32,000 bases of DNA, from NCBI GenBank assembly GCA_965224465.1, contig OZ245049.1:2460001-2492000 (forward strand), written 5' to 3'. How positions within the stretch are numbered: position 1 is the stretch's first letter; each line of letters opens with the position of its first letter. The notes beneath the pieces were generated by a model. That model saw only the letters and a program-made list of their open reading frames with translations. It was not told where the DNA came from and did not search any database. The DNA comes from Flavobacteriaceae bacterium. Lineage in GTDB: Bacteria > Bacteroidota > Bacteroidia > Flavobacteriales > Flavobacteriaceae. The translations under genes and the position numbers were made by a program. This document shows positions 9,307-23,401 of this stretch, in pieces.

Positions 9307-10818
9307 ATGACGATCAGACACTCAAACCAACGATTAATCTATTTATTATCACCCTTATTTTTATTCATAAACTGCGAAAAAGACGAACTCATATTTGAGC
9401 ACAAACTAACAACCACTATAAGTCCAAAAGAAGGAGGAACAGTAACACCTTCTTCGGGAACTTACGAGGCAGATAACACGATAACACTTAAAGCAACTCC
9501 CTCTAAACATTATACTTTTAAGAACTGGAGTGGCAGTGCATCTGGTTCTAAAAATTCCATTTCAATAACACTAAACACAAACAAAAATATTGATGTAATC
9601 TTTGTAAAAAAAGACACTGATAACGATGGTGTCACAGATGATATTGATACATGCCCAAACACTCCCCCTGGAGAAGAGGTAACCAAGTATGGCTGTGCTA
9701 CTTCACAAACAGACACAGACAAAGATGGTGTTATGGACTCGCTAGACAGATGCCCAAACACACCAGAAAAAGAAAAGGCAAACAGCAAAGGATGTTCTAG
9801 TTCACAACTAGATTCTGACGGAGACGGAGTCGCAGACAACATTGATGATTGTCCAAATACCACAAAAGGCATCCCTGTAGATAAAAACGGTTGTACTAGT
9901 AAACAAAAAATACATATACCTGACGTTAATTTTGAGAAAAGGCTAATCGCTTTAGGCTATGACGATGTTTTGGACAACTATGTGTTTTACAAGAACATTA
10001 AAGAGGTATTGTATTTAGATGTATCCGGATTAAATATTAGCAATTTAACAGGCATAGAAGCCTTTGAAAACTTGACAATTTTAAACTGTAAGAAAAACAA
10101 ACTTACCCAACTAAATCTAACTAAAAACATAGCCCTAAAAGAATTATACACACGCAAAAATCAACTCAAAAACCTAAACATAAGTAACAACTCTGAGTTA
10201 GTAAAACTATACTGTTCCAATAATAAATTAGCAAAATTGGATGTAAGTAGCAATACAAAATTGACTCAAATAATGTGTAACAATAACCGATTAACACGCT
10301 TACATTTAAGAAGTAACACAGAATTAAAAGAGTTAATATGTGATTCTAACAAACTCCCCAGTTTAGATTTGAGTAACTGTAATAAATTGGTACGGATTTG
10401 GTGTGGATTTAACCAACTCGAACAATTAAACATACGTAAAAACACACAGCTACGGTATTTAATTTGCGCTAACAATAAAATTACAAGTTTGGATGTAAAA
10501 AGCAATCTTCAATTGTCTGAATTTGCTTGTGGAAACAACCTAATTACCGATCTGAACCTCGTCAACAATACACTCTTATCAGAATTTGCATGTGGACAAA
10601 ATCGAATTAAAAAGTTAGACATACGTAACAACAAACAGTTAAAGCAATTAAGTTGCGGTAAAAACCAACTCACTCGTTTAGATTTAAGTAAGAATCGTCG
10701 ATTAACAGACTTGTTTTGTTCTTACAATAAATTATTTTGTATAAAAGTGGCTCCAAACCACAATTACAGTTCATGGATTAAAGATACTGAGACTATATTT
10801 TCTCTGAATTGTAATTAA
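9307..10818 (+). CDS. Surface lipoprotein with an InlB-B-repeat-like domain, three thrombospondin type-3 Ca-binding repeats and about 11 leucine-rich repeats
   Basis: The lipobox is LFINC. GGTVTPSSGTYEADNTITLKATPSKHYTFKNWSG resembles a Listeria-Bacteroides repeat. DTDNDGVTDDIDTCPNTP, DTDKDGVMDSLDRCPNTP and DSDGDGVADNIDDCPNTT are TSP3 repeats. About 11 units of 21 aa follow the pattern LxxLxCxxNxLxxLDLxxNxx. Confidence 0.8.
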   Translation: MTIRHSNQRLIYLLSPLFLFINCEKDELIFEHKLTTTISPKEGGTVTPSSGTYEADNTITLKATPSKHYTFKNWSGSASGSKNSISITLNTNKNIDVIFVKKDTDNDGVTDDIDTCPNTPPGEEVTKYGCATSQTDTDKDGVMDSLDRCPNTPEKEKANSKGCSSSQLDSDGDGVADNIDDCPNTTKGIPVDKNGCTSKQKIHIPDVNFEKRLIALGYDDVLDNYVFYKNIKEVLYLDVSGLNISNLTGIEAFENLTILNCKKNKLTQLNLTKNIALKELYTRKNQLKNLNISNNSELVKLYCSNNKLAKLDVSSNTKLTQIMCNNNRLTRLHLRSNTELKELICDSNKLPSLDLSNCNKLVRIWCGFNQLEQLNIRKNTQLRYLICANNKITSLDVKSNLQLSEFACGNNLITDLNLVNNTLLSEFACGQNRIKKLDIRNNKQLKQLSCGKNQLTRLDLSKNRRLTDLFCSYNKLFCIKVAPNHNYSSWIKDTETIFSLNCN

Positions 10819-11424: not shown

Positions 11425-11907
11425 ATGCCAGAAAGATCCGTAGCAACAGTAGGCAGCATGCATGTGTGTCCAATGTGTTCAGGAACTGTTCCTCATGTAG
11501 GAGGGACTATTATTCAAGGAGAGAGCAATGTTTTAGTAAATGGTAATCCCGTTGCAACTATGGGGAGTATATGTACTTGTATAGGTGCTATCGGCACAGT
11601 TATACAAGGTTCGCCCACTGTTTTTGTTAATGGTAAGCCTATTGCTTGTGTTGGTGATATGACCCAGCACGGAGGGATAATTACCTCAGGCTCTCCGAAT
11701 GTTTTTATAGGTAGCTCGCCGGAAACCCCTACAAAAACAAATAACCTTCAAGAGATAGCGTTTCCTGAAATCTCCTTAGTTAATAGGATACAAGCAGTGG
11801 TTACAGGTAATAATGATGCATTAAAAGAAGCAGCACAGAATATGGAGAAAATAAAAAATGAGGCTGATAAAAATGGTTTTTTAAACGCTATAGATTTTAG
11901 TTTTTAA
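11425..11907 (+). CDS. PAAR domain protein (spike-tip protein of a contractile injection system) with a C-terminal extension of about 60 aa
   Basis: The sequence VGSMHVCPMCSGTVPHVGGTIIQGESNVLVNGNPVATMGSICTC...GSPTVFVNGKPIACVGDMTQHGGIITSGSPNVFIG shows three PAAR-type repeats with the classic GDxxxHGGxIxxGSxxVxI ending. The stop codon is 2 nt before the next start. Confidence 0.85.
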   Translation: MPERSVATVGSMHVCPMCSGTVPHVGGTIIQGESNVLVNGNPVATMGSICTCIGAIGTVIQGSPTVFVNGKPIACVGDMTQHGGIITSGSPNVFIGSSPETPTKTNNLQEIAFPEISLVNRIQAVVTGNNDALKEAAQNMEKIKNEADKNGFLNAIDFSF

Positions 11908-11909
11908 CG

Positions 11910-14900
11910 ATGAAAGAAATTACACATCCTGAAAAAGGAAAAAAGGTAGGCGCTAAAGTTAGTTCTACAATTTTCGGCACATACCCAATAGGAAAATTTA
12001 ACACTTGGCACGGAGGCACACACTTAGAGAGTATGTCTGAATTAGTAGCCATTGCAGACGGTAGAATAATAGCCTATCAAATTACAGACAATTACGAATC
12101 CGTAGCTTTTGAAGGGAAAGACCAAGTGTATTCAAAATGCTTTGTACTAATACAGCACGACTACGTAATTAAAAAGACAGAGGACGATACTAAAGAAGGT
12201 AAACCTATTCGGTTTTATTCTTTTTATCAACATCTAATGCCTTTATCTAAAATAAAAAAAACAAATAAATTCCCTTACTTTTTCTGTGATAAAAAGCACG
12301 TTATCAAAGCTAAAGAACAGGTAAAGGGTGCTAAAATGTACAGGTTTATAAAGGGTAAAAAAACCGAAAAAACATTTATCCCTAATGGCACAACCATTAA
12401 GTTAAACAAAACGGATAAAGTCACAAAAAATAAACATTCCTATACTAGAGTAACTTCTGTTGATGGTATTGCTCTTACAAATAAACACTATATAAGTGAA
12501 AGTTTTATTGGTACAGATCTCATTAAAAAATATAGTTATGTACGTACAGAATATTATACAGACCCTAATAATGATACCAAAGGAGGGCGTATTCGTGAAA
12601 AGGCAAGTGGTACATCTAAAATTGTAAATCTAATCCCCTACGGAAAAGTGGTTGCTATAGATATGTCTACAAAAGATAAATCTTGGATAAAATTAGCCGA
12701 TGGTAGCGGGTATACTTTCAAAAAAAGTTTAGAATATAAAAGTGTATTAAATAATAAAAAAATCACAAAAGATAAAGTTATAGGTTGTGATATCCCTGTA
12801 AAAGCAAACCAAACCATTGGACATGCAGGAAAAAACGGCACTTTAGGATTCGAAAATTACAGAAACTGTCATTTTGAAATTTTTACGGATGCAAGTGATA
12901 GCGACCTAAAATATTTTATAAATAATAAAGCAAAAAACAGTTTTAAAACGCCTCGCTTTTTTGAAATAGAAAACGGAGCTAAGTTAAAAGCTAATATTGT
13001 TAAATCGCTTGATATCAGCGCTAATACCCCTATAAAAGTACTCAAGGTAAAAGATTGTTCGATAAAAGTAGAAATAATTGAAATTATGGCTACCATTGCG
13101 TATTCTGATGTAATTGATAATAATGACAAAGCGAGTAGTTACAACCTAAAAGCGGATACTTTTGACACGGTTAATACCGCTTTTAATAATACATTAAAAG
13201 TAACAGATAAACTCTATTATATAGAGCGTTGCGATGAAAGCGGTAAAAAAATATCTAATAAAGAAAACGACCAACGTATAAAGGATAAACTTGCCCAATA
13301 CAGAAATGTAAAGTTTAACCCTAAACATATAAAACAACTATTTTGGGTAAAGGAAACCGATATTGACGTATGTACAGCCGGTGAAAAAGGGAAAATTACA
13401 ACTGCTTTAACCCAAGTGTATATTTATGAGCCTAAAGATGAAACCGAAGATTTAACCATAAACGAAGCATTGCTTATAGAAAATAAAGGATTAAAAACCT
13501 ATACCAATAAAAGCACTAAAGAAAAATGGTATGCTATTACATGTAGCTATATAGAAAACAATAAATTGGTTAGTAAAAAAGGATGGATAAGTGAAAATAA
13601 CAGTAAGTTTACTGCAAAAAACCCACATAATTGGAAAGAGTTTGGTTTTGAAATTATAGATGCAGGAAAAGATTATGTATATGAGGTAGAAGGCTATAAT
13701 AGAGCAGAAAACAGTGGTGATTTTATTAACAAAATGTGGGAATTAATAGATACCGACGGCAACAAACGTATTAATAGAGTGGAGATAATTAATGCATTTT
13801 CAGATAGTAAAAAACTAAATAAAATAGCTAAATTTATCTGCAAGCACAAGAGTGAATGGTCGTACACTATTGATAAAATAAAAGAAGAAGCCGAGCAGTT
13901 TTATAAAATAGGAATAGACGAAGCTACAGGTATAAAAAAAGATAAATTAACCGAAAAAAAAGATAAACTTATTGATGTGTTTGTATCTAAATTAGAAAAT
14001 TTATTGTGTTGGAAAGAGATACAAAATGCCAACTATACACCACCTGTAATAAAACAGAAAACGAAAACAAAAGATACGTTTAGGTTTTTCCCTAAAGATT
14101 TTCAAGAAATTATTGATGATAAAGAACCGCAAAATTTATTTATAGAAGAAATGATGCAAATTATGGATGAAAAGAAGAAAGAAGAAGAAAAACCAAAACG
14201 TGTAGTGCCTAAAGGTGATGTGTTTCATTATTTTCATCCTATTGCTTTTTTACAGCATATGAAGTTGATTACTGCAACAAATGTTATTTATATTTATTCT
14301 GATGGCACAATTAGTAAATTAGATTTAAAAGGGCTTAACGAAATAACTTATGTCTATGTAAGTTCTAATGGTAAAGAATATAAAATTTGCACTTGTGAAT
14401 TATTAGAAATTGATGAAAGGTTAAAAGGAGTTGCACATGATCAAGCAACAGCTCATGCTGTTAAATCAGGATATGATGCTGGTAATATTGTGAGTTACTC
14501 TCATGCTTCCTCACGTAAAAAATATACATATCCCGATGGGACTATAAGAACTTACGGGAAATATGATGGAGAATTTAGACGAGTTGTTTATAATAAAGGA
14601 GCAAGAAAAACACACATAGTTAAACTTCCTAATGGATTAAATACAAAAGTAAATAATAAATCTGTGAAATTTGCATTTACATCAACAGCAAGAACATATT
14701 GTGGGCCTGAACATTTTGCTTGTTTTATAGGAGCTTTAACAGAAGTAGGTTATGCTGATATTGTTTCAGGAGGAATGTGTGAAGAGGACGGAACATGCTT
14801 TCCTAGTATATCGCACAATAATGGTCAGAGTGTTGATACTAGTTATTTAGATGATGATATTAGAGAACAAAACTTTATAAATGCTATGAATAAATTTGGA

Positions 14901-15011
14901 TTTGATGGTCAGCTTAGAGGTTATGCAAAGAAGAAATTTGATCATACGACTGCTAAATCTCATCACAATTCGCACCTGCATTCAGGGGTGTTAAAACCAA
15001 AATATAAATAG
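11910..15011 (+). CDS. Large polymorphic effector: split LytM/M23-like domain with an SH3b-like insertion, an unknown central region with an EF-hand-like loop, a K/E-rich linker, and a C-terminal LAS-type (HxxGxxxD...HxH) putative peptidoglycan peptidase toxin domain
   Basis: 1033 aa with no signal peptide. The M23-like blocks are WHGGTHLE, VAIADGRIIAY, FYSFYQHL and, about 190 aa later, VKANQTIGHAGKNG and NCHFEIF. GGRIREKASGTSKIVNLIPYGKVVAIDMSTKDKSWIKLADGSGY is SH3b-like. DTDGNKRINRVE is an EF-hand-like loop (13749-13784). The linker is DEKKKEEEKPKR. The C-terminal motifs are SHNNGQSVD (14811-14837) and HLH (14973-14981). Confidence 0.7.
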   Translation: MKEITHPEKGKKVGAKVSSTIFGTYPIGKFNTWHGGTHLESMSELVAIADGRIIAYQITDNYESVAFEGKDQVYSKCFVLIQHDYVIKKTEDDTKEGKPIRFYSFYQHLMPLSKIKKTNKFPYFFCDKKHVIKAKEQVKGAKMYRFIKGKKTEKTFIPNGTTIKLNKTDKVTKNKHSYTRVTSVDGIALTNKHYISESFIGTDLIKKYSYVRTEYYTDPNNDTKGGRIREKASGTSKIVNLIPYGKVVAIDMSTKDKSWIKLADGSGYTFKKSLEYKSVLNNKKITKDKVIGCDIPVKANQTIGHAGKNGTLGFENYRNCHFEIFTDASDSDLKYFINNKAKNSFKTPRFFEIENGAKLKANIVKSLDISANTPIKVLKVKDCSIKVEIIEIMATIAYSDVIDNNDKASSYNLKADTFDTVNTAFNNTLKVTDKLYYIERCDESGKKISNKENDQRIKDKLAQYRNVKFNPKHIKQLFWVKETDIDVCTAGEKGKITTALTQVYIYEPKDETEDLTINEALLIENKGLKTYTNKSTKEKWYAITCSYIENNKLVSKKGWISENNSKFTAKNPHNWKEFGFEIIDAGKDYVYEVEGYNRAENSGDFINKMWELIDTDGNKRINRVEIINAFSDSKKLNKIAKFICKHKSEWSYTIDKIKEEAEQFYKIGIDEATGIKKDKLTEKKDKLIDVFVSKLENLLCWKEIQNANYTPPVIKQKTKTKDTFRFFPKDFQEIIDDKEPQNLFIEEMMQIMDEKKKEEEKPKRVVPKGDVFHYFHPIAFLQHMKLITATNVIYIYSDGTISKLDLKGLNEITYVYVSSNGKEYKICTCELLEIDERLKGVAHDQATAHAVKSGYDAGNIVSYSHASSRKKYTYPDGTIRTYGKYDGEFRRVVYNKGARKTHIVKLPNGLNTKVNNKSVKFAFTSTARTYCGPEHFACFIGALTEVGYADIVSGGMCEEDGTCFPSISHNNGQSVDTSYLDDDIREQNFINAMNKFGFDGQLRGYAKKKFDHTTAKSHHNSHLHSGVLKPKYK

Positions 15012-15013
15012 AA

Positions 15014-15763
15014 ATGTATAAATTAATACAAATATTTTTTGCACTAGGGTTATTGACTAGTTGTCTTGATTCTAAAAATCACAAAGAAAAATTAAAAGAT
15101 AATAATTTAGCAGAAATAAAAGTAGAATTAACAGATAGCACCTCGTTAAGAGTAAAACAATTATCTAATTTCAACTTAAGTCAGTTATCATTAGGAAATG
15201 ATAAGATTACTGATAAAGAGTTTAGAGGCAAAAATAGTTTTTACATTAAAAAAGGAACAGATGTAGAATTAAATAATGAATTTATTTACTCTTCAAAAGG
15301 TGAAATTTTAAAAGATTATTTTCATAACTTTTATAAACCGACAGCTTTATCATCAGTTGAAGAAGATAAATATCCTTTATATGATGATAAAGATTATATT
15401 CAAAAAGTAGGTATTAAATCTTCAGGACTAGAAAATATTATAAAAAATAAAGATGGAGTATACTTATGTGTGTTTTTTGTAAATTTTAATTATGATAAAG
15501 AATATGAGTCTTTTATTAAACCTATCAGGTATTTAGTTTCTTTTGATGAAAATTTAAATATTTTGAATGAATTCACTCTTAGTTTTTTTTATGAAACAGA
15601 AACAAAGAGTTTCATAAAATTATTTTATTTAGATGAAAACTTAAATATTTACACTAATTATTACAGGAACAAAGAGGATAAAGACGGAAATATAAAGGAG
15701 ACCTTTTCAGACTTATATAGGTATACCGTATTGTCTAATGGTACAATTTCAGAGAAGAAATAA
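15014..15763 (+). CDS. Lipoprotein, candidate cognate immunity protein for the 1033-aa effector
   Basis: 249 aa with the lipobox LLTSC. It starts 2 nt after the effector stop. There is no recognisable enzymatic motif. Confidence 0.55.
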   Translation: MYKLIQIFFALGLLTSCLDSKNHKEKLKDNNLAEIKVELTDSTSLRVKQLSNFNLSQLSLGNDKITDKEFRGKNSFYIKKGTDVELNNEFIYSSKGEILKDYFHNFYKPTALSSVEEDKYPLYDDKDYIQKVGIKSSGLENIIKNKDGVYLCVFFVNFNYDKEYESFIKPIRYLVSFDENLNILNEFTLSFFYETETKSFIKLFYLDENLNIYTNYYRNKEDKDGNIKETFSDLYRYTVLSNGTISEKK

Positions 15764-16331
15764 ACCTTACGATTATACACTTCATGAGCATAGAGCTCCA
15801 ACTTTTGGGTATAGAAGAGGCACACCTAGTATAAGGCTACATGCTGCAAGAGATTTATATTATGATGCTGAAGAACCAATTTATGCAATAGCAGATGGTA
15901 CTACAAAAAGAGTTTATGAATTTTATCTCGACACTTATGCTATTGAAGTTGAACATAATTACGAGCACGTCAAAGGACATAAATTGTATGTCCGTTATGG
16001 AGAAGTAAGTAAGAATAATATTTTAGTAAAAGTCGGAGAAGAAGTAAAACAAGGAGACCAAATAGCCGAAATAGGTTTATTATATAGTAAGAAAAAAGAT
16101 AAGTATATTATTCAACCATACCCTGATAAAAGAGGCATGTTGCATTTAGAAATGTACACAGGTGAAGCAAAAGGAAAATTAACTGACAAAACAGTAAAGT
16201 ATACAGATATGCTTTATGCAAAATCAGACAAATACCACAAAGGACGTTCTTTTCAAAGGCGAAAAGATTTATTTGACCCATTACCTTTGTTAAAAATTAT
16301 GTATAACAATTCTAAATCTGATTTTAAATGA
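15738..16331 (+). CDS. Small M23/LytM-like protein without a signal peptide (candidate second effector)
   Basis: 197 aa. LHAARDLY (HxxxD), IYAIADGTT, YAIEVEH, VKVGEEVKQGDQIAEIG and MLHLEMY follow M23 block order. It overlaps the upstream ORF by 26 nt and the downstream ORF by 4 nt (ATGA). Confidence 0.6.
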   Translation: MVQFQRRNKPYDYTLHEHRAPTFGYRRGTPSIRLHAARDLYYDAEEPIYAIADGTTKRVYEFYLDTYAIEVEHNYEHVKGHKLYVRYGEVSKNNILVKVGEEVKQGDQIAEIGLLYSKKKDKYIIQPYPDKRGMLHLEMYTGEAKGKLTDKTVKYTDMLYAKSDKYHKGRSFQRRKDLFDPLPLLKIMYNNSKSDFK

Positions 16332-16891
16332 GAAATATAAAATATTTTTTAGTACTAGTAGTATCCCTTTTTTTTAGTTTGAATTCTTGTATAGAGAAAA
16401 AAACTAATGTTTCTAAATTAACAAATGATACAAAGGCTAATAAAACACCCAAAAAGGAAATAGTAAAGAAAAATAATCCTTTTAAATATATATACAATGT
16501 AGATTTGGTAGGAATGGAAGCTTCTGAAAAAATTAAAGACACTAAGCCTTATGAAAAATATTCTGTTGACTTTACAGCTGCTTGCTATTCTAGTAATCTA
16601 TTGAAAATAAGAATAAACAATGAGATTGTATCAATCTCAAACTATAACGATTCGAGAATTGAACAATCATTTCATATTAGTGATACAAAAATCCAAAATG
16701 ATAGTTTAATAATTGAATCAAATTCTCCAAATTATTTTAAAATAATAATTGTAAAAGTAAAAAATGCTCAGGTTTACTCTTTAGAGTATAAAGGTAATTT
16801 AGAAATAGATGTAAAAATGAGTAAATTTATTTCAAGAGAAACTGACCTTTTTAAATTTGGAGGTATCGATTGTGATGATTTTGGAGGATAA
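16328..16891 (+). CDS. Lipoprotein, candidate immunity protein for the small M23-like protein
   Basis: 187 aa with the lipobox SLNSC. Its start overlaps the stop of the M23-like gene. Confidence 0.5.
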   Translation: MRNIKYFLVLVVSLFFSLNSCIEKKTNVSKLTNDTKANKTPKKEIVKKNNPFKYIYNVDLVGMEASEKIKDTKPYEKYSVDFTAACYSSNLLKIRINNEIVSISNYNDSRIEQSFHISDTKIQNDSLIIESNSPNYFKIIIVKVKNAQVYSLEYKGNLEIDVKMSKFISRETDLFKFGGIDCDDFGG

Positions 16892-16899
16892 GAGCTAGA

Positions 16900-17518
16900 T
16901 TGTGAACAAGATAAAAAAGTAAAGCCACAGTTTAAAAAGCTGTGATATTATGGTTTGTAAATTAAATTTGTTTTTATGAATAACGCTCAATTAAGTAAAT
17001 TATTTAATCCCGATGTTACGGTCTTACTGGACAGGGTAAAAGTGACTGATAAAGATATTAATGTGCATTTACTTTATGCATTGTGTAATGCTGTTAAATG
17101 TTCAATTTCAATAGAAGAGTTTAACCCTTCTATTTATATTGAAGATGTTAATAATCAAATTGCATTTAACAATCAACTAAACATAGAGGCTCCAGAAAGT
17201 ATTAAAGCATCTTTTATAACTACATTTAGGGTAGATTTTATCTATGATGATAATTTAAACAATCATGTATACTGTTTTTTTAAAACGCAACCTTATATCA
17301 CCAATAACGATTGCCCTGTTGAAATCGTTAATTTCAATAAATCCTTATTAGAATTAACACCAAACGATTGCTTACGGTATGTAAATAGTAAATTAAAAGA
17401 ACTCTATCCTAACTTATGGGACGATACATTAAACATTTCTATAAATATAACATTGCATCACTACCAAGCAGCAAAAAACAAGTGGAAAATAATAACACCA
17501 ATATCTGATTAAAAATAA
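16900..17518 (+). repeat. 619-bp direct repeat, copy 1 (contains the 178-aa ORF and 76 bp of its upstream region)
   Basis: Aligns base for base with 21398-22016 at a constant offset of 4498 nt. Only a few substitutions are visible. Confidence 0.9.
16976..17512 (+). CDS. Hypothetical cytoplasmic 178-aa protein, copy 1 of the repeated gene
   Basis: Intact ORF with no signal peptide and no motif I recognise. The paralog at 21474-22010 differs at 4 of 178 residues. Confidence 0.6.
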   Translation: MNNAQLSKLFNPDVTVLLDRVKVTDKDINVHLLYALCNAVKCSISIEEFNPSIYIEDVNNQIAFNNQLNIEAPESIKASFITTFRVDFIYDDNLNNHVYCFFKTQPYITNNDCPVEIVNFNKSLLELTPNDCLRYVNSKLKELYPNLWDDTLNISINITLHHYQAAKNKWKIITPISD

Positions 17519-17532
17519 TATTAAGAAGTATT

Positions 17533-17666
17533 TCAACAAATTATATAGGAAAGCTTTAGATATATACTTTAATAAAAAGGGTATACGAACAAGGAAGACC
17601 TATGGTGTTGAAAAACACATTCAAATGTGGACTTCTAAATAGTCGGATTTATTAGTTGAATTTAAG
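17533..17666 (+). repeat. 134-bp junction repeat, copy 1
   Basis: The stretch TCAACAAATTATATAG...TTATTAGTTGAATTTAAG recurs at 18754-18888 with scattered substitutions and one 1-nt indel. Confidence 0.85.
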
Positions 17667-17746
17667 CATGTCTAAATTCTATGATTTTAAAATATACACT
17701 AAAGACATACCTCAAAGTAAAAGATCTAACTCTTAATAAAGATAAA

Positions 17747-18643
17747 ATGAAACCTTATTATTTAATTATATTAATTTTCTGTTCATGTAAAGAAAAGTCA
17801 GAAAATAAAATTAACGAAAGTCATACAATAATAACTACTCTAGAGGTGCATGAAGAAACCTCTTCTATAGTGATTCCTAAAAGATCTCAAGAAAAAATTG
17901 GTTTAATAAATGATACTGATGGTTATACGAACGCACGTAAAGAACCTTCATCATCTTCTGAAATTTTATTTAAAATATTAGAAGATGAATATTTTATGTA
18001 TACTTCTATAAAAGAATCAAATTGGTCTGAAATACAAACTCTTGATAATAAGGTCGCTTATGTACATAATAGTAGAATAAAAAAAGTAAATCCAAATAAT
18101 GTGATTACTTTTTTTAGTGAATATTATGATGAGGATGAAGAAAAAGACAAGCTTATAAAAAATATTATAACAATAAAATCACTGGATGAATCAAAAGCTT
18201 TTTCTATAAAGGAATTTCCATATTCTAAATTAAAGATTGTTAGTATATCCAATGATACTCTAATTTTATTAAGTGATGACAAAAAAATATCTATTGAAGT
18301 TATAGCAGGTCTTTTTGAAAAAGAGAAGCATTCAATTGAATACAATGAAAATAATTACGTCAACAAAATTGATTCGAAAAATATTTATGGAAATGACCAA
18401 GTACCAGTTAGAGAAATTAAGCAAATAATAATTCAGAAGGATGACATTAAATTTGAGTTAGACACAAAAGTTTTTAGTAATTTATATGAACCAAATTTTG
18501 AACATCTTAATGTTTATATAAAAGGAAATAATCAATTAATTATGTCTATGACAAATGGACATGGAGCAATAAATTCTTATAAATCAATTTTAATATTTGA
18601 TAATTCAAATCTATTAAAACACATAACCTATATTCCTTTTTAA
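17747..18643 (+). CDS. Lipoprotein with an SH3-like N-terminal domain (start taken at the internal ATG that gives a lipoprotein signal peptide)
   Basis: MKPYYLIILIFCSCKEK provides the lipobox. GLINDTDGYTNARKEPSSSSEILFKILEDEYF...WSEIQTLDNKVAYVHNSRI is SH3b-like. The track ORF starts at 17681, but 17747 gives a canonical signal peptide. Confidence 0.55.
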   Translation: MKPYYLIILIFCSCKEKSENKINESHTIITTLEVHEETSSIVIPKRSQEKIGLINDTDGYTNARKEPSSSSEILFKILEDEYFMYTSIKESNWSEIQTLDNKVAYVHNSRIKKVNPNNVITFFSEYYDEDEEKDKLIKNIITIKSLDESKAFSIKEFPYSKLKIVSISNDTLILLSDDKKISIEVIAGLFEKEKHSIEYNENNYVNKIDSKNIYGNDQVPVREIKQIIIQKDDIKFELDTKVFSNLYEPNFEHLNVYIKGNNQLIMSMTNGHGAINSYKSILIFDNSNLLKHITYIPF

Positions 18644-18753
18644 GTTTAGTATGGAATCCAATGTTATTGAAAAAGTTATACATACTGTTTAAAAAAAACG
18701 CATCCTTATAATACCAATATCCAATTAAAAACAATTTAAATAACGATAGCATG

Positions 18754-18888
18754 TCAACAAATTATATAGCAAATCTTTAGATATACACTTTAACAAAAAT
18801 AGTATACGAACAAGGCAAACCTATGGTATTGAAAAAAGACATTCAAATGTTGACTTCTAAATAGTCGCATTTATTAGTTGAATTTAAG
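18754..18888 (+). repeat. 134-bp junction repeat, copy 2
   Basis: Homologous to 17533-17666. It lies immediately upstream of the orphan toxin module. Confidence 0.85.
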
Positions 18889-18932
18889 ATGGGAAATATG
18901 GAAGAAAAGAAGAAGAAAAACCAAAACGCGTA

Positions 18933-19808
18933 GTGCCTAAAGGTGATGTGTTTCATTATTTTCATCCTATTGCTTTTTTACAGCATATGAAGTTGATTAC
19001 TGTAACAAATGTTATTTATATTTATTCTGATGGGACAATTAGCAAATTAGATTTAAAAGGGCTTAGCGAAATAACTTATGTCTATGTAAGTTCTAATGGT
19101 AAAGAATATAAAATTTGCACTTGTGAATTATTAGAAATTGATGAAAGGTTAAAAGGAGTTGCACATGGGCAAAAAATAGCTCATACCATCGAGTCAGGTT
19201 ATGATTCTAGTAATATTGTTACTTATGCACATGCTTCTTCTCGAAAAAAATATACTTATCCAGATGGCACTATAAGAACATATGGTCCTTACGATGGAGG
19301 TTTCAGAAGAGTTGTTTATAAAAAAGGCGCAGAAAAAAAACGAATTATTAAAATGCCTAAAAAAATTGGTGTTAAAATTGATAATAATAAAGTAATTGCA
19401 TTTAAGTTTACAGGCACAGCAAGAACTTATTGTGACCCAGAAGTTTTCGCTGGATTTATAGGTGTCTTAGGTGAAACAGGATATCCATCTACAGATATAA
19501 TATCGACAGGTATGTGTGAAGAAGACGGAACATGCTTTCCTAGTATTACCCACAATAATGGGCAAAGTATAGATATTAAATACCTTAAGAAAAATGGTGG
19601 TATAACAAGTTACATGTACAATAAGGATTTTGATAAAGTTAGAATGCAAAAAATTGTTGATGGATTTGTTAAATTTAATTTTAAATATTTAGCGGCATGG
19701 AAAGATTCTGAAGGTAAGCTGATGACTAATACAAAGAAAGTATCTCATCACCATCATCATTTTCATGCAGGTAATTTAAATAAAACAAAAATAAGAAGAA
19801 ATGATTAA
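18933..19808 (+). CDS. Orphan C-terminal toxin module, paralog of effector residues 766-1033, with no ATG start (probably silent unless recombined)
   Basis: The first 235 nt are nearly identical to 14205-14439. After that the module diverges but keeps THNNGQSID and HHHHHFH (the HxxGxxxD and HxH motifs). The frame opens only after a TAA at 18885-18887. It has no in-frame ATG, and the first possible start is the GTG at 18933. Confidence 0.7.
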   Translation: MPKGDVFHYFHPIAFLQHMKLITVTNVIYIYSDGTISKLDLKGLSEITYVYVSSNGKEYKICTCELLEIDERLKGVAHGQKIAHTIESGYDSSNIVTYAHASSRKKYTYPDGTIRTYGPYDGGFRRVVYKKGAEKKRIIKMPKKIGVKIDNNKVIAFKFTGTARTYCDPEVFAGFIGVLGETGYPSTDIISTGMCEEDGTCFPSITHNNGQSIDIKYLKKNGGITSYMYNKDFDKVRMQKIVDGFVKFNFKYLAAWKDSEGKLMTNTKKVSHHHHHFHAGNLNKTKIRRND

Positions 19809-20475
19809 AATAATATTTAAATTTTTGATAGTGTTTTTTTTGATAAGTTCATGTAAGACGAAAAAAGAGGAACTTAAAAAATCAGCTCAAATTTCATCTA
19901 ATAATTACGAAAAAGATAAAGTACCTTATTTAAAACTTCCAATAGATTATTCTTTTGAAAGAAACAAAAAAAATATTAAAGGAGATGTATTTTATAATCA
20001 ACGAGTAAAAATAAACACAAAAATAAATAATAATTTCAGTTTTATTAGTGAAAAGAATAATCTAAATATTGAAAATGAAATATGTAAAAAGTATAAAGAA
20101 AAATGCAATTCATATTTTACAGAATTTGATTATTCTAAAACGTACAAAATTCAAAATGATTTTGATTTTGATCTTTATTTAATTACTTCCAAATTCAGTT
20201 ATTACTTAAATTTAATATCAATTAAAGACGATAAAGTCATAGATTTATTGAATGTTTATTTAAATTACGTTGATTATGAAGGTCAAGAATGTATCTATCG
20301 AAACTTCTCTGTTGACAAGGATCTTAATGTTTCTATTTTTAATTATATCTATTTTGAATCTACAGGAGAAGTTGAAGAAGACAATAATGAAGCTGATTCC
20401 ATAAACATATATCCACCTGCTACTTTAAAACAAGAATTGTATACATTAACAAAAGAAGGATTATTCAGCAGATGA
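19801..20475 (+). CDS. Lipoprotein, candidate immunity protein for the orphan toxin module
   Basis: 224 aa with the lipobox LISSC. Its start overlaps the orphan toxin stop by 8 nt. Confidence 0.55.
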   Translation: MIKIIFKFLIVFFLISSCKTKKEELKKSAQISSNNYEKDKVPYLKLPIDYSFERNKKNIKGDVFYNQRVKINTKINNNFSFISEKNNLNIENEICKKYKEKCNSYFTEFDYSKTYKIQNDFDFDLYLITSKFSYYLNLISIKDDKVIDLLNVYLNYVDYEGQECIYRNFSVDKDLNVSIFNYIYFESTGEVEEDNNEADSINIYPPATLKQELYTLTKEGLFSR

Positions 20476-20490
20476 TTTTACGTAAAATGA

Positions 20491-20759
20491 TTAAAAGCAG
20501 AAGAAGAAGAAGAAGAAGAAGAAGAAGAAGACTGGGGTATACCGTCAGTAAATAATAATTTAAAACAGGTATGACTCATGGTTTTGGTTGGAAAAGAGGA
20601 CACTTTGGATTAGAACCAGAAAAATTTAACAATGGAGGTTCAGGGGCGACAACTTGGGTTCATTTAGATGTTAGGGAATTTGGGAAAGTAAACCTTAATG
20701 AAAAATTATTCGTTAAAAAACAAAGCTTAATAATTGGAAAAAAACTAACAGAATATTAA
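20491..20759 (+). pseudogene. Degraded third orphan toxin remnant: poly-Glu linker, then a frameshifted fragment ending in a WVHLDVRE motif (M15A-like C-terminus)
   Basis: The linker frame (20491-20574) has no start codon and ends at the TGA at 20572-20574. The 62-aa ORF at 20571-20759 is in a different frame and reads GFGWKRGHFG...GGSGATTWVHLDVRE. That resembles the C-terminal fVHvDvR block of peptidase M15A/DUF882. The upstream HxxxxxxD block is missing. Confidence 0.4.
20500..20529 (+). repeat. (GAA)10 trinucleotide microsatellite
   Basis: Ten perfect GAA units counted in the sequence. They lie in an open frame reading LKA(E)10DWGIPSVNNNLKQV followed by a stop. Confidence 0.95.
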
Positions 20760-20763
20760 AACT

Positions 20764-21369
20764 ATGAAAATGAAAATTGTTTTATTATTTTTTGTCTTAA
20801 TTTTTGGAATATCTTGTAAAGACAAAAACAAAAATAACACATCAATAAAATTAATTACTAGCACTAATAGTCTCATTGAGAACGCTGTAACTGAGAAGTC
20901 AGGACAAAAAAACAATTGTTTAAAGAGTGATGTTAAACCTCTGAAATTGCCAATTGATGGAGGAGAAAACCTTATGTCTTTTACAATTGAAAATGATATA
21001 GAATTACAAGTGTTAAAATGTGATGTAAGTATAATAAAATCTAAATTATGCAATACTGATTTTATAAGTTATTATTCTCTGCCTAATAAAAATGATTTAA
21101 ATCCAATAATTATAGCAGATGAATATGGAGATAATAATAATAGTTACACTTTAGTTATTCATAAAGAGGATAAAATAACCGATTTTGTCCTACTATATAA
21201 TTCTTGGATTGAAATGTCAGAAAACCCAAAAAAAGAAATTACAGATTTTAAAATATCTAAGGAATATGAAATAATTATTTCAAAACAAGAATATAAAAAT
21301 AATATCCAAACAAAACAAGAATCAATTAATTACCAAATTGATAAAAACGGGAAACTATTAATTCAATAG
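20764..21369 (+). CDS. Lipoprotein, candidate orphan immunity protein
   Basis: 201 aa with the lipobox FGISC. It shares the LKLPID motif and a C-terminal Y-x-[IL]-x-K-x-G-x-L type ending with the 19801-20475 lipoprotein. Confidence 0.5.
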   Translation: MKMKIVLLFFVLIFGISCKDKNKNNTSIKLITSTNSLIENAVTEKSGQKNNCLKSDVKPLKLPIDGGENLMSFTIENDIELQVLKCDVSIIKSKLCNTDFISYYSLPNKNDLNPIIIADEYGDNNNSYTLVIHKEDKITDFVLLYNSWIEMSENPKKEITDFKISKEYEIIISKQEYKNNIQTKQESINYQIDKNGKLLIQ

Positions 21370-21397
21370 TCACCTCCAGCTGTCGCAATCGTCTCGC

Positions 21398-22016
21398 TTG
21401 TGAACAAGATAAAAAAGTAAAGCCACAGTTTAAAAAGCTGTGATATTATGGTTTGTAAATTAAATTTGTTTTTATGAATAACGCTCAATTAAGTAAATTA
21501 TTTAATCCCGATGTTACGGTCTTACTGGACAGGGTAAAAGTGACTGATAAAGATATTAATGTGCATTTACTTTATGCATTGTGTAATGCTGTTAAATGTT
21601 CAATTTCAATAGAAGAGTTTAACCCTTCTATTTATATTGAAGATGTTAATAATCAAATTGCATTTAACAATCAACTAAACATAGAGGCTCCAGAAAGTAT
21701 AAAAGCATCTTTTACAACTACATTTAGGGTAGATTTTATCTATGATGATAATTTAAACAATCATGTATACTGTTTTTTTAAAACGCAACCTTATAACACC
21801 AATAACGATTGCCCTGTTGAAATCGTTAATTTTAATAAATCCTTATTAGAATTAACACCAAACGATTGCTTACGGTATGTAAATAGTAAATTAAAAGAAC
21901 TCTATCCTAGCTTATGGGACGATACATTAAATATTTCTATAAATATAACATTGCATCACTACCAAGCAGCAAAAAACAAGTGGAAAATAATAACACCAAT
22001 GTCTGATTAAAAATAA
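21398..22016 (+). repeat. 619-bp direct repeat, copy 2
   Basis: Matches 16900-17518 at a constant offset of 4498 nt. Confidence 0.9.
21474..22010 (+). CDS. Hypothetical cytoplasmic 178-aa protein, copy 2 of the repeated gene
   Basis: Intact ORF. It differs from copy 1 by I81T, I108N, N146S and I176M. Confidence 0.6.
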   Translation: MNNAQLSKLFNPDVTVLLDRVKVTDKDINVHLLYALCNAVKCSISIEEFNPSIYIEDVNNQIAFNNQLNIEAPESIKASFTTTFRVDFIYDDNLNNHVYCFFKTQPYNTNNDCPVEIVNFNKSLLELTPNDCLRYVNSKLKELYPSLWDDTLNISINITLHHYQAAKNKWKIITPMSD

Positions 22017-22134
22017 GCTAAATTCAATAGTAACCTCCCGCTGTCGCAAGCGTCTCGCTTGAGAACAAGATAAAGAAACGAAGCCTCAGTTTAAAAAGCT
22101 GTGATATTATGGTTTGTAAATTAAATTTGGCTTT

Positions 22135-22245
22135 ATGAATAACACTCAATTAAGTAAATTATTTAATCCCGATGTTACGGTATTACTGGACAAGGTAAAA
22201 GTGTCTGATAAAGACATCAATGTGCATTTACTTTATAGGTTATAG
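22135..22245 (+). pseudogene. Truncated third copy of the repeated 178-aa gene (36 codons)
   Basis: MNNTQLSKLFNPDVTVLLDKVKVSDKDINVHLLY is followed by RL and a stop. Homology to copies 1 and 2 starts in the upstream region near 22021 and ends abruptly at 22236, 26 nt from the next gene. Confidence 0.8.
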
Positions 22246-22261
22246 GACTATAATAACACTA

Positions 22262-23401
22262 CTAAGCATTGTATTTTGCTTTCCGAAGCACTCGCATTAC
22301 TTCTTTAAAATTAACATAAGAAGTAAGGTCTTCTAACTTTTTTAAATAGGGCTTGGCAGCTTCCAAATAAGGCAATGCATCTGGCATATTATTAAGAATA
22401 CAAATCATATACTTAGTAGGTAAATCGTGAAGCTGATTTTGTTCATCAACGGACAAGCAAACACCTTGTTTTAAAAGACCTATCAAGTAATTGTTTTGTT
22501 TAAAAATAGCTGTTAAAATTGACTTATTATACTGAGGTGGCTCAAACAAAAACTCCTCTGCAATTTTATAATGACCATTGTTTTTAAAATGAATTACTTT
22601 TTTCTCCAAAGGATACAATCGCTGTACTTCATCAATACCTAACAACACGTATTCTGTACAAATAAACGAATGCTTATTTTGTGTTATTTGCACAAAGTCC
22701 ATCGCGGAGTAAAAAAATCGATTGTTCTCATTGATCAATTCTATATCCACCCTAGAATAATATATTTTTTTATGAATCCGATGTTTCTGCCCTGCCCAAC
22801 AAAGAACAAATTGCTCATGAAACACAGTATAAGAAGGCTCAAACCCATGATGACGATCCATAAAATCAAAAACACCATCTAGGGTTAATTTAATATTATT
22901 ACTCGCCATTTTCTCTATAGCTTTAACGGTATCCCTATTTTGACTGGTCATTTTCTGTTCTAAAAGATACGGCATAGAGTTGCTTCCTTTCCTATAAAAG
23001 AACAATCCTTTGGTGTATTTCCAGCATTGTTTACTCAAACAAGTAGTTTCTGCATTGGCAAAAATAGTAACAAGTCCGACTACCTTATGTCTAGGAAGTC
23101 CGGGAAAATGGACATTCTCGTATATAATTCTTGGAGGATTTACAAAATAAGAATTTACCAAATTTTGAATTTTACTATCATCATAAAAATCAACCCCTAC
23201 AATTTGGTTCGTAGCATCCTCCACTCCTATTACCAAAAAAGAATTATTGTTAGGATTTGAGTTAGACAAGGCACAAATATGTTTTAAAAATTTTGCCTTT
23301 CCTTCGGTTTGGTGCAAGCTGATTTTACGCTTTTTATCATAAAAACAATTTTCATCATTATGAGCAAGTAGATTTCTTATAAGGAGTCGCTTGTTAATCA
23401 T
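22262..23401 (-). CDS. AlbA_2 / Schlafen-like divergent AAA-type putative nucleic-acid-binding protein
   Basis: 379 aa. The N-terminal ...HNDENCFYDKK...FLKHICALSNSNPNNNSFLVIGVEDATNQIVGV resembles the AlbA_2 signature (E..EfK ... icAfaNt.GG.l.iGV.d.g.i.Gv). Its ATG overlaps the SDR stop by 1 nt (TGATG). Confidence 0.5.
   Translation of the reverse strand: MINKRLLIRNLLAHNDENCFYDKKRKISLHQTEGKAKFLKHICALSNSNPNNNSFLVIGVEDATNQIVGVDFYDDSKIQNLVNSYFVNPPRIIYENVHFPGLPRHKVVGLVTIFANAETTCLSKQCWKYTKGLFFYRKGSNSMPYLLEQKMTSQNRDTVKAIEKMASNNIKLTLDGVFDFMDRHHGFEPSYTVFHEQFVLCWAGQKHRIHKKIYYSRVDIELINENNRFFYSAMDFVQITQNKHSFICTEYVLLGIDEVQRLYPLEKKVIHFKNNGHYKIAEEFLFEPPQYNKSILTAIFKQNNYLIGLLKQGVCLSVDEQNQLHDLPTKYMICILNNMPDALPYLEAAKPYLKKLEDLTSYVNFKEVMRVLRKAKYNA

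Follow-up and report, generated by a model that had tools for sequence, protein, structure and literature searches.

We analysed a stretch of 32,000 nucleotides from a Flavobacteriaceae bacterium (contig OZ245049.1, positions 2,460,001 to 2,492,000), hereafter the window, and focus on a locus of about 10.8 kb within it (positions 11425–22245 of the window). The locus is headed by genes for a PAAR spike-tip protein and a 1033-aa effector and belongs, with high probability, to the type VI secretion system of subtype iii (T6SS-iii) of Bacteroidota, as an auxiliary effector locus detached from VgrG and from the genes of the apparatus. An earlier reading made from the letters alone (the sequence-only reading) had proposed a PAAR-led polymorphic cell-wall toxin/immunity locus. 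This is supported by the adjacency of the PAAR and effector genes, the conserved N terminus of the effector family and its variable, peptidoglycan-acting C termini.

Five genes are packed together on the forward (+) strand, which also carries every other feature of the locus. By the open reading frame (ORF) list they encode the PAAR protein, the effector, a lipoprotein (LP1), a 197-aa protein related to M23 peptidases (the M23 ORF) and a second lipoprotein (LP2). The intergenic spacings are +2 nt (PAAR/effector), +2 nt (effector/LP1), -26 nt (LP1/M23 ORF) and -4 nt (M23 ORF/LP2), and ORF coordinates thus reproduce the gene order and all spacings of the sequence-only reading. Its remarks on targeting also agree with the translations: neither toxin candidate was said to carry a signal peptide, and a hydrophobic N terminus is absent from both the effector and the M23 ORF; lipoboxes were claimed for five candidate immunity proteins, and in all five the signal peptide ends in Cys (LLTSC, LNSC, FCSC, ISSC and GISC). 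An effector without a Sec signal is therefore followed, 2 nt downstream, by the lipobox-bearing LP1.

The PAAR–effector module and its relatives

The PAAR protein (160 aa; 11425–11907) matches the Pfam family PAAR_motif (PF05488; E 1.8e-29, 102 bits against a cut-off of 27). After the PAAR domain (approximately residues 1–97) come about 60 further residues, a C-terminal extension that is conserved. The effector gene (11910–15011) can be divided into a conserved N-terminal region (residues 1–763; 11910–14198), a junction or demarcation motif (R764..P767..F775-H776-P777..M784; 14199–14261) and a variable C-terminal toxin domain, CT1 (14262–15011). In an alignment of 13 homologs (A1), about 785 N-terminal residues are conserved and the sequences are unrelated past the junction. 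The junction consensus is R..P....V.HFHPIAF..QM, in which R764, F775, H776, P777 and M784 are invariant or near-invariant. The motif lies at residue 635–916 in full-length effectors, mostly around 750–830, and mostly around residue 82–105 in orphan cassettes, with one at 368.

Profile searches of the window's ORFs, recommended by the sequence-only reading, gave PAAR (1.8e-29) and Peptidase_M23 (2e-8) in Pfam. The effector itself has no significant match in Pfam or NCBIfam, and a sequence search of the PDB with the full protein returned no match. The statement that its architecture fits no named family consequently stands as far as Pfam and NCBIfam are concerned; the kind of system to which it belongs is well known.

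The genomic surroundings of the family carry most of the argument. An initial homolog search found a small family, mostly from Aquimarina, that includes a full-length paralog (P0006) on the source contig. By exhaustive profile search the family comprises 284 clusters (50% identity) at E<=1e-30 and 973 at E<=1e-10. A scan of one genome per species gave 31 loci, from Aquimarina, Tamlana, Pseudotamlana, Cellulophaga, Olleya, Capnocytophaga, Fulvivirga and metagenome-assembled genomes (MAGs) of Cytophagales; 35 loci were inspected in all. In about 25 of the 31, the gene immediately before that of the effector homolog encodes a full-length PAAR homolog (40–53% identity, extension included). In 12 loci the gene immediately before PAAR encodes a VgrG of about 610 aa, recognised by the Phage_GPD, Phage_base_V and NCBIfam VgrG models, and the VgrG–PAAR–effector order is also found in Cellulophaga sp. 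L1A9 (L033), Aquimarina sp. TRL1 (L034) and A. muelleri (L035), making 15 loci in all. Moreover, in one locus (L021) the genes for TssN, TssK, TssO, ClpV/TssH, TssE and TssF, assigned by Pfam and NCBIfam, stand immediately upstream of VgrG, and the same T6SS protein clusters occur in the same order in two others (L011 and L017). TssN and TssO are specific to the T6SS-iii of Bacteroidota. Linkage to VgrG and to TssN/TssO in relatives hence argues that the effector family is T6SS-iii cargo, loaded via a dedicated PAAR protein.

Detached PAAR–effector pairs like that of the window recur elsewhere: in four Tamlana/Pseudotamlana loci the pair lies, without VgrG, inside a glycosyltransferase/Wzy cluster. 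The conserved neighbours in Tamlana were considered as another injection system and rejected, as they are glycosyltransferase and Wzy genes. Two variants of the module were seen. One locus (L022, 3981–5223) has two tandem PAAR genes before the effector, and another (L008, 1453–1992) has an additional 179-aa gene between PAAR and effector that could encode an adaptor.

The C termini of the family point to the cell wall. Among 19 scanned, 15 have a recognisable domain and all 15 of these are peptidoglycan-acting (CHAP, GH19-like, SLT, muramidase, phage lysozyme, M23, YkuD and PG_binding_1); none of these is a nuclease or other cytoplasmic toxin. A lipoprotein gene follows nearly every effector. 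Peptidoglycan-acting C termini together with lipoprotein genes speak for delivery to the periplasm. Autolysins and endolysins, on the other hand, typically have M23-like, SH3-like and peptidase-like modules too, and the large protein might be a cell-wall hydrolase with a housekeeping or predatory role (an autolysin or secreted lysin) exported via Sec or the type IX secretion system (T9SS), its adjacency to PAAR being incidental. We regard this as extremely unlikely. The effector has neither a signal peptide nor a T9SS C-terminal domain, the adjacency to PAAR is kept across several genera, and polymorphic C termini accompanied by lipoprotein genes and orphan arrays are foreign to autolysins.

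The N-terminal region of the effector shows some structure of its own. Residues ~1–340 resemble an M23/LytM-like domain interrupted by an SH3-like insertion; a beta-rich middle and a helical part, the latter with the EF-hand-like loop and the Cys/His/Glu/Trp motif described below, make up the remainder. A profile search of the PDB with the N terminus placed lysostaphin and EnvC at the top with both motifs in register, at a non-significant E of 0.17, and when the N-terminal core was compared by hhalign with true M23 toxin tips from the family, the probability was 82.5% (E 9.8e-6). The M23-like domain has no Pfam match. Its motif W-H34-G-G-x-H38 has His where HxxxD has Asp. In the AlphaFold2 (AF2) model of the effector, the predicted local distance difference test score (pLDDT) is 60–90 across residues 36–710, and a Foldseek search of the PDB with the whole model returned only spurious multi-domain matches with root mean square deviations above 15 Å.

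Further along, the motif C644-x-H646-x2-E649-W650 (residues 644–650; 13839–13859) is invariant in A1. Proteins from Capnocytophaga and a Tissierellia MAG (L026, L027, L030 and L031) align to the effector only over residues ~535–690, and this stretch is therefore a separate module. An EF-hand-like loop, D-T-D-G-N-K-R-I-N-R-V-E, was noted at residues 606–617 (13725–13760); its Pfam EF-hand_6 match (E 0.022) is below the cut-off.

CT1 is a putative zinc peptidase of the LAS type (M15/VanY-like), judged from the motifs of an alignment of its homologs (A2). Its elements come in the order helix, S-G-G, H-x6-D, helix (..KFGF) and His motif, and it is this order, fitting an M15/VanY-like zinc peptidase, that makes the LAS type the candidate. 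CT1 has S-H969-x6-D976 and H1019-x2-H1022-x-H, of which only the last His is not invariant in A2 (invariants S-H969-x-N-G-x3-D976, H1019 and H1022). The domain is rare: only seven homologs were found, most of them short 'hypothetical proteins' resembling orphan cassettes, from Cellulophaga, Tenacibaculum and Aquimarina.

LP1 (15014–15763), the candidate for the cognate immunity protein of CT1, belongs to the same cassette. The end of CT1 together with LP1 (14443–15760) is 92.7% identical in nucleotides to an orphan C-terminal domain and the following gene for a 318-aa SH3 protein in Cellulophaga sp. L1A9, and LP1 is 91% identical to residues 1–251 of that protein. The full-length effectors of the window and of the Cellulophaga locus are only 29% identical in protein. 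CT1 and LP1 hence travel as one unit, and their identity to the Cellulophaga orphan shows cassette exchange between genera.

We propose that the PAAR protein would cap a VgrG spike encoded elsewhere and that its extension of about 60 aa would recruit the effector as cargo. Contraction of the sheath would then drive the effector into the periplasm of a neighbouring cell, where CT1, probably as a LAS-type zinc peptidase, would bind and cleave peptidoglycan. The N-terminal M23/LytM-like and SH3 module may perhaps bind or cleave peptidoglycan as well, and sibling cells would be protected by LP1.

Weighing the assignment to T6SS-iii

A number of results weigh against the assignment to T6SS-iii or against parts of the mechanism. 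No VgrG, Hcp or Tss gene lies in the window, and tblastn of VgrG, TssN, TssK, TssO, ClpV, TssE and TssF against it gave no significant match. The TssF of Aquimarina was used as a query for the apparatus at large, and among the best 120 of its 214 homologs none is on the source contig. For CT1, Pfam gave nothing, including in a permissive scan of all nine members of the CT family; nor did a search of PDB sequences with the CT1 profile. An AF2 model of CT1 (pLDDT 63.8, below 50 in the active-site loop) found no match at E<=0.001 in the PDB and BFVD by Foldseek. Aligned by hhalign with the M15A-like tip of a relative (L016), the CT1 profile fell into the expected register at an E of 0.18, which is not significant. 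Compared with its 318-aa homolog, LP1 is missing the SH3 part at the C terminus. Finally, the last zinc-ligand position of the N-terminal M23-like domain is Gln in several members of A1 and no conserved immunity gene accompanies that domain, which may therefore be non-catalytic; in view of the missing immunity gene, it would be a cell-wall-binding or accessory module and not necessarily a second toxin.

The surroundings of the locus bear on the same question. The sequence-only reading had reported no Tss, VgrG or eCIS (extracellular contractile injection system) genes, tRNA or integrase within the window, and tblastn, a tRNA scan and annotation of the flanks bear this out: there is no tRNA gene in the 32 kb and no integrase, and the flanking genes are housekeeping (panC, panD, glmS, a ThrE-family gene, an SDR gene, bactofilin and ATP synthase). 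It had also described the locus as detached from any secretion apparatus. This is true of the window; in the three relatives with Tss genes, the apparatus adjoins the module.

The TssF result extends beyond the source genome. The contigs of A. muelleri and Aquimarina sp. TRL1 that carry VgrG–PAAR–effector clusters likewise have no homolog among the best 120 of 214, and in these two complete genomes the cluster is not beside T6SS core genes. The null may reflect a divergent T6SS-iii, the limits of a word index, the view of only the best 120 of 214 homologs, or real absence. These TssF results also fit loading of the module on a contractile injection system other than a T6SS, such as an eCIS of the Afp/PVC-like kind with VgrG-like spikes and PAAR-like tips, and some Aquimarina strains do have eCIS loci with predicted toxins (PMC11297309). 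This alternative is nevertheless very unlikely. The module is contiguous with TssN, TssO and ClpV in three loci, and no eCIS-type sheath, tube or baseplate genes were found in the window or among the neighbours inspected in the 35 loci. Lipoprotein immunity genes point to self- or kin-directed antibacterial toxins, as is typical of T6SS, and the only sensible targets of peptidoglycan hydrolases are bacteria, attacked in the periplasm.

Some weight, though not much, attaches to a further departure from the proposed mechanism. The source genome, and perhaps other Aquimarina, would be without a T6SS-iii of known type and would deliver the effector by an unrecognised or highly divergent apparatus. 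Independently of this, CT1 may represent a peptidoglycan hydrolase fold for which no relative has been solved or curated, and the N-terminal 785 aa, with their M23-like H-x3-H site, EF-hand-like loop and C-x-H-x2-E-W motif, may form a new loading or activation module peculiar to T6SS-iii. For the locus as a whole, the T6SS-iii assignment is the one we retain.

A downstream array of toxin and immunity cassettes

The downstream 6.5 kb is made up of displaced toxin/immunity cassettes brought about by recombination at the junction motif. It holds an M23 fragment and LP2, the gene of an orphan lipoprotein with an SH3 domain, an orphan toxin cassette (oCT) and LP3, and M15A-type fragments and LP4. 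A cassette with its junction intact could be swapped back into the expressed gene, and retained immunity genes could guard against the toxins of relatives.

A trace of recombination is found in oCT (18888–19808), which carries the junction motif and a diverged CT1-type domain. Its ORF (18933–19808) is 70% identical in protein to effector residues 766–998. An in-frame stop (18885–18887) stands ahead of it, and before the homologous region there is no ATG in frame, only a GTG at 18933. Over effector nucleotides 14216–14395, which span the junction motif, the two sequences are 97–98% identical; beyond this, identity falls to 92% up to 14455, to 73–78% up to 14635 and to 55% or less at the 3' end. 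A 180-nt stretch of near identity followed by decay is the expected signature of a recombination handle. LP3 (19801–20475; lipobox ISSC), the immunity candidate for oCT, overlaps it by 8 nt and is unrelated to LP1.

The 3' truncation of LP1 and the start of the M23 ORF (15738–16331) have a common origin. Homology to the Cellulophaga locus ends exactly at the TAA of LP1, and the M23 ORF takes its ATG and first eight codons from immunity-gene DNA, in a different reading frame. One recombination event therefore cut about 67 residues off LP1 and joined to it a 5'-truncated M23 tip. The encoded protein matches Pfam Peptidase_M23 (E 2e-8; 34.7 bits against a curated cut-off of 28.7) and is 35–38% identical to the C-terminal M23 tips of two full-length effectors (P0002 and P0012). 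H35-AAR-D39 is present and HxH is reduced to M-L-H, as in those two tips. The M23 ORF as an independent second effector was rejected, since it encodes an orphan toxin domain truncated at the 5' end, and its start codon is borrowed. LP2 (16328–16891; lipobox LNSC), the immunity candidate for the fragment, overlaps the M23 ORF by 4 nt and has no homologs in the fetched loci.

The SH3-domain lipoprotein gene (17681–18643; Pfam SH3_3, E 1.1e-6; lipobox FCSC) is flanked by direct repeats of about 180 nt that are 85% identical (17492–17666 and 18708–18888). Its true start is likely Met23 at 17747. The protein is 35% identical to the product of the gene directly after the effectors of L013 and L033, and 63% identical to that of an array gene in Olleya (L028_17599); by these homologs it is a predicted orphan immunity gene. 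Each direct repeat holds a fragment of an M15A/LAS-type toxin domain. By tblastn the first (17550–17612) matches residues 175–195 of the C-terminal domain of the L016 effector (E 0.01) and the second (18768–18833) residues 174–195 (E 5e-4). A remnant further downstream (20568–20759, including a 62-aa ORF at 20571–20759) comprises the final ~60 codons of such a domain: its nucleotides 20568–20747 match residues 214–273 of the same L016 domain with 53% identity (E 1.3e-18), including WVHLDVR. Fragments in the direct repeats and the remnant downstream place the oCT–LP3 cassette within a broken tip of the M15A type, and LP4 (20764–21369; lipobox GISC) is probably the immunity gene that belongs to this tip.

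The description of this region in the sequence-only reading can now be revised. A start-less copy of the effector C terminus with its own lipoprotein gene is confirmed by the 70% identity, the upstream stop and the lack of an ATG, and the degraded third toxin with a further lipoprotein gene by the L016 match and the adjacent LP4. The notion of a silent cassette array gains from junction-bearing orphan ORFs, which occur both here and in other loci (L002, L011, L028 and L029). The repeated spacer genes correspond to two full copies and one truncated copy of a 178-aa gene, described below. Of the toxins and immunity proteins it listed, the SH3 lipoprotein is indeed a lipoprotein but is recast as an orphan immunity gene on account of homologs that follow effectors, and the small M23 protein is not a second toxin, its homology to the P0002 and P0012 tips and its borrowed start marking it as an orphan fragment.

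The 178-aa repeat gene (R178) is present in two copies at 98.9% nucleotide identity and in a truncated third. Copy A (unit 16900–17518, gene 16976–17512) corresponds to 21398–22016 within copy B (unit 21360–22016, gene 21474–22010); copy C (22021–22236) is 92% identical to 21360–21575 and is the probable right-hand edge of the array. The R178 protein has no signal peptide and no Pfam family match, and may be encoded by a mobile or recombination-prone spacer gene. The gene belongs to a repeat unit of about 930 bp (16900–17666, 21288–22016 and 22021–22236), in which it stands between the 3' end of an LP4-like gene and a tail with an M15A-toxin fragment. The unit recurs at 97–99% nucleotide identity (97% for copy A) on a metagenome contig (L032, 9171–10102) in an unrelated context of HTH_38, HATPase_c_3 and Bro-N genes, and the last 23 residues of LP4 are 100% identical to the sequence just upstream of the R178 gene there. 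In both full copies TAAATTTG lies 13 nt upstream of the start. Promoter boxes of the Bacteroidetes type (TAnnTTTG) were considered as a sign of silent cassettes and dropped, the motif being too short to decide the matter; they are noted at the R178 genes only.

Arrays of other genomes can be larger and more mixed. In Cellulophaga sp. L1A9 (12315–19514) the array past VgrG–PAAR–effector is continued by genes for an Rhs protein, for SUKH immunity and for a Tox-URI2/Imm44 pair; the contents of this array indicate that cassettes of different polymorphic-toxin classes pile up at a single site. In A. muelleri (12828–22841) the array is much longer than that of the window: the effector gene is followed by about 18 small ORFs, among them a CHAP fragment and, at ~15478–15597, a junction-bearing sequence.

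The GC content is 0.24–0.28 over 14.5–22 kb and 0.33–0.35 in the flanks. The A/T richness noted in the sequence-only reading is therefore real, although the fall begins at about 13 kb, within the effector gene, and not at 11.4 kb. The island proteins are all singletons at 90% identity. Island status rests on composition, these singleton proteins and the differing chromosomal contexts of the family, and not on a syntenic empty site. At the left edge, a gene for a 503-aa leucine-rich-repeat lipoprotein (9307–10818, +), with InlB B-repeat, thrombospondin type-3 and leucine-rich repeats, is separated from PAAR by 606 bp of non-coding DNA and may itself be accessory. At the right edge, a convergent Schlafen/AlbA_2 and DUF5929 gene (22262–23401, -) lies 25 nt from the truncated R178 copy; it may be defence-type and could be part of the same variable region.

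The amount of debris in the array raises the question of whether the locus works at all. It could be a non-functional relic, a decaying island in a strain without the apparatus and of value only via its immunity genes. Such a relic would be in keeping with the missing VgrG, with the truncated LP1, the M23 fragment with its borrowed start, the M15A-type fragments and the truncated R178 copy, with the lack of a TssF match on the source contig among the best 120 of 214 homologs, and with the singleton proteins. We nonetheless consider it quite unlikely, as the PAAR gene and the 3.1-kb effector ORF are intact and retain all family-invariant residues, the 2-nt spacing suggests a co-transcribed operon, the same genome holds P0006 as a second full-length paralog, and the near-identical junction handle implies recent recombination.

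Comparison with known systems

The kind of system is well known; the locus and the effector class appear to be undescribed. T6SS-iii effectors have been characterised mainly in gut Bacteroidales and Flavobacterium johnsoniae, and marine Flavobacteriaceae dominate algal and particle surfaces. We found almost nothing published on T6SS-iii effectors in marine Flavobacteriaceae and nothing specific on this effector family in Aquimarina, Flavobacteriaceae or Tenacibaculum. The locus reveals no new principle. What it offers is a single scaffold family with interchangeable cell-wall enzymes, always with a dedicated PAAR, and unusually clear cassette traffic: a toxin/immunity pair that one genus has as its expressed tip is found as an orphan in a second genus, with 93% identity in nucleotides, and a 180-nt near-identical handle marks the site of the swap. 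The most useful specifics are the cell-wall-only T6SS-iii scaffold family, the exchange of cassettes between genera and a toxin tip without fold assignment. Their practical value lies in new pairs of peptidoglycan hydrolase and immunity protein and in a tractable model for toxin switching.

The closest parallel is with the auxiliary VgrG–PAAR–effector–immunity modules of T6SS, represented in Bacteroidota T6SS-iii by Fte1/Fti1 of Flavobacterium johnsoniae and by Bte/Bti and Bfe of Bacteroidales. As in these modules, PAAR stands directly before a signal-less cargo effector that is followed by an immunity gene, relatives are linked to VgrG and to TssN, TssK, TssO, ClpV, TssE and TssF, and the toxins are predicted to target peptidoglycan and the immunity proteins to face the periplasm. 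Unlike them, the window locus has no VgrG or apparatus genes within 32 kb, and neither the N-terminal ~785 aa of its effector nor its toxin domain falls in a curated family.

The polymorphic architecture recalls that of Rhs and CdiA proteins, in which short demarcation motifs (PxxxxDPxGL in Rhs, VENN in CdiA) divide a conserved body from variable tips. Like the window family, they have tips that each come with an immunity gene, and start-less downstream orphans that retain the junction as a recombination handle. However, Pfam and NCBIfam searches of the effector found neither YD/Rhs repeats or an Rhs core nor FHA/haemagglutinin repeats or a TPS domain, which is therefore not an Rhs or CdiA protein. 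Its family has instead a body made up of M23/LytM-like, SH3 and uncharacterised middle parts, and its recognised tips are all cell-wall enzymes, whereas those of Rhs and CdiA are mostly nucleases.

MIX, FIX and RIX are marker-domain classes of polymorphic T6SS effectors, often at orphan loci, that belong to proteobacterial T6SS-i. They share with the window family an N-terminal marker region common to effectors with diverse C-terminal toxins. The marker of the window family is much larger, at about 785 aa, and apparently includes an enzyme-like domain; the family is also one of T6SS-iii and always has a dedicated PAAR gene. Finally, the Tae amidases, the Tge muramidases and Tlde1, an effector of L,D-transpeptidase fold, are small single-domain T6SS effectors with the same target and the same periplasmic immunity logic, and the family's CHAP, muramidase/lysozyme and YkuD tips correspond to them. 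Where these act as separate small proteins, the window family mounts interchangeable tips on one large scaffold, and the tip carried in the window is of an unrecognised type.

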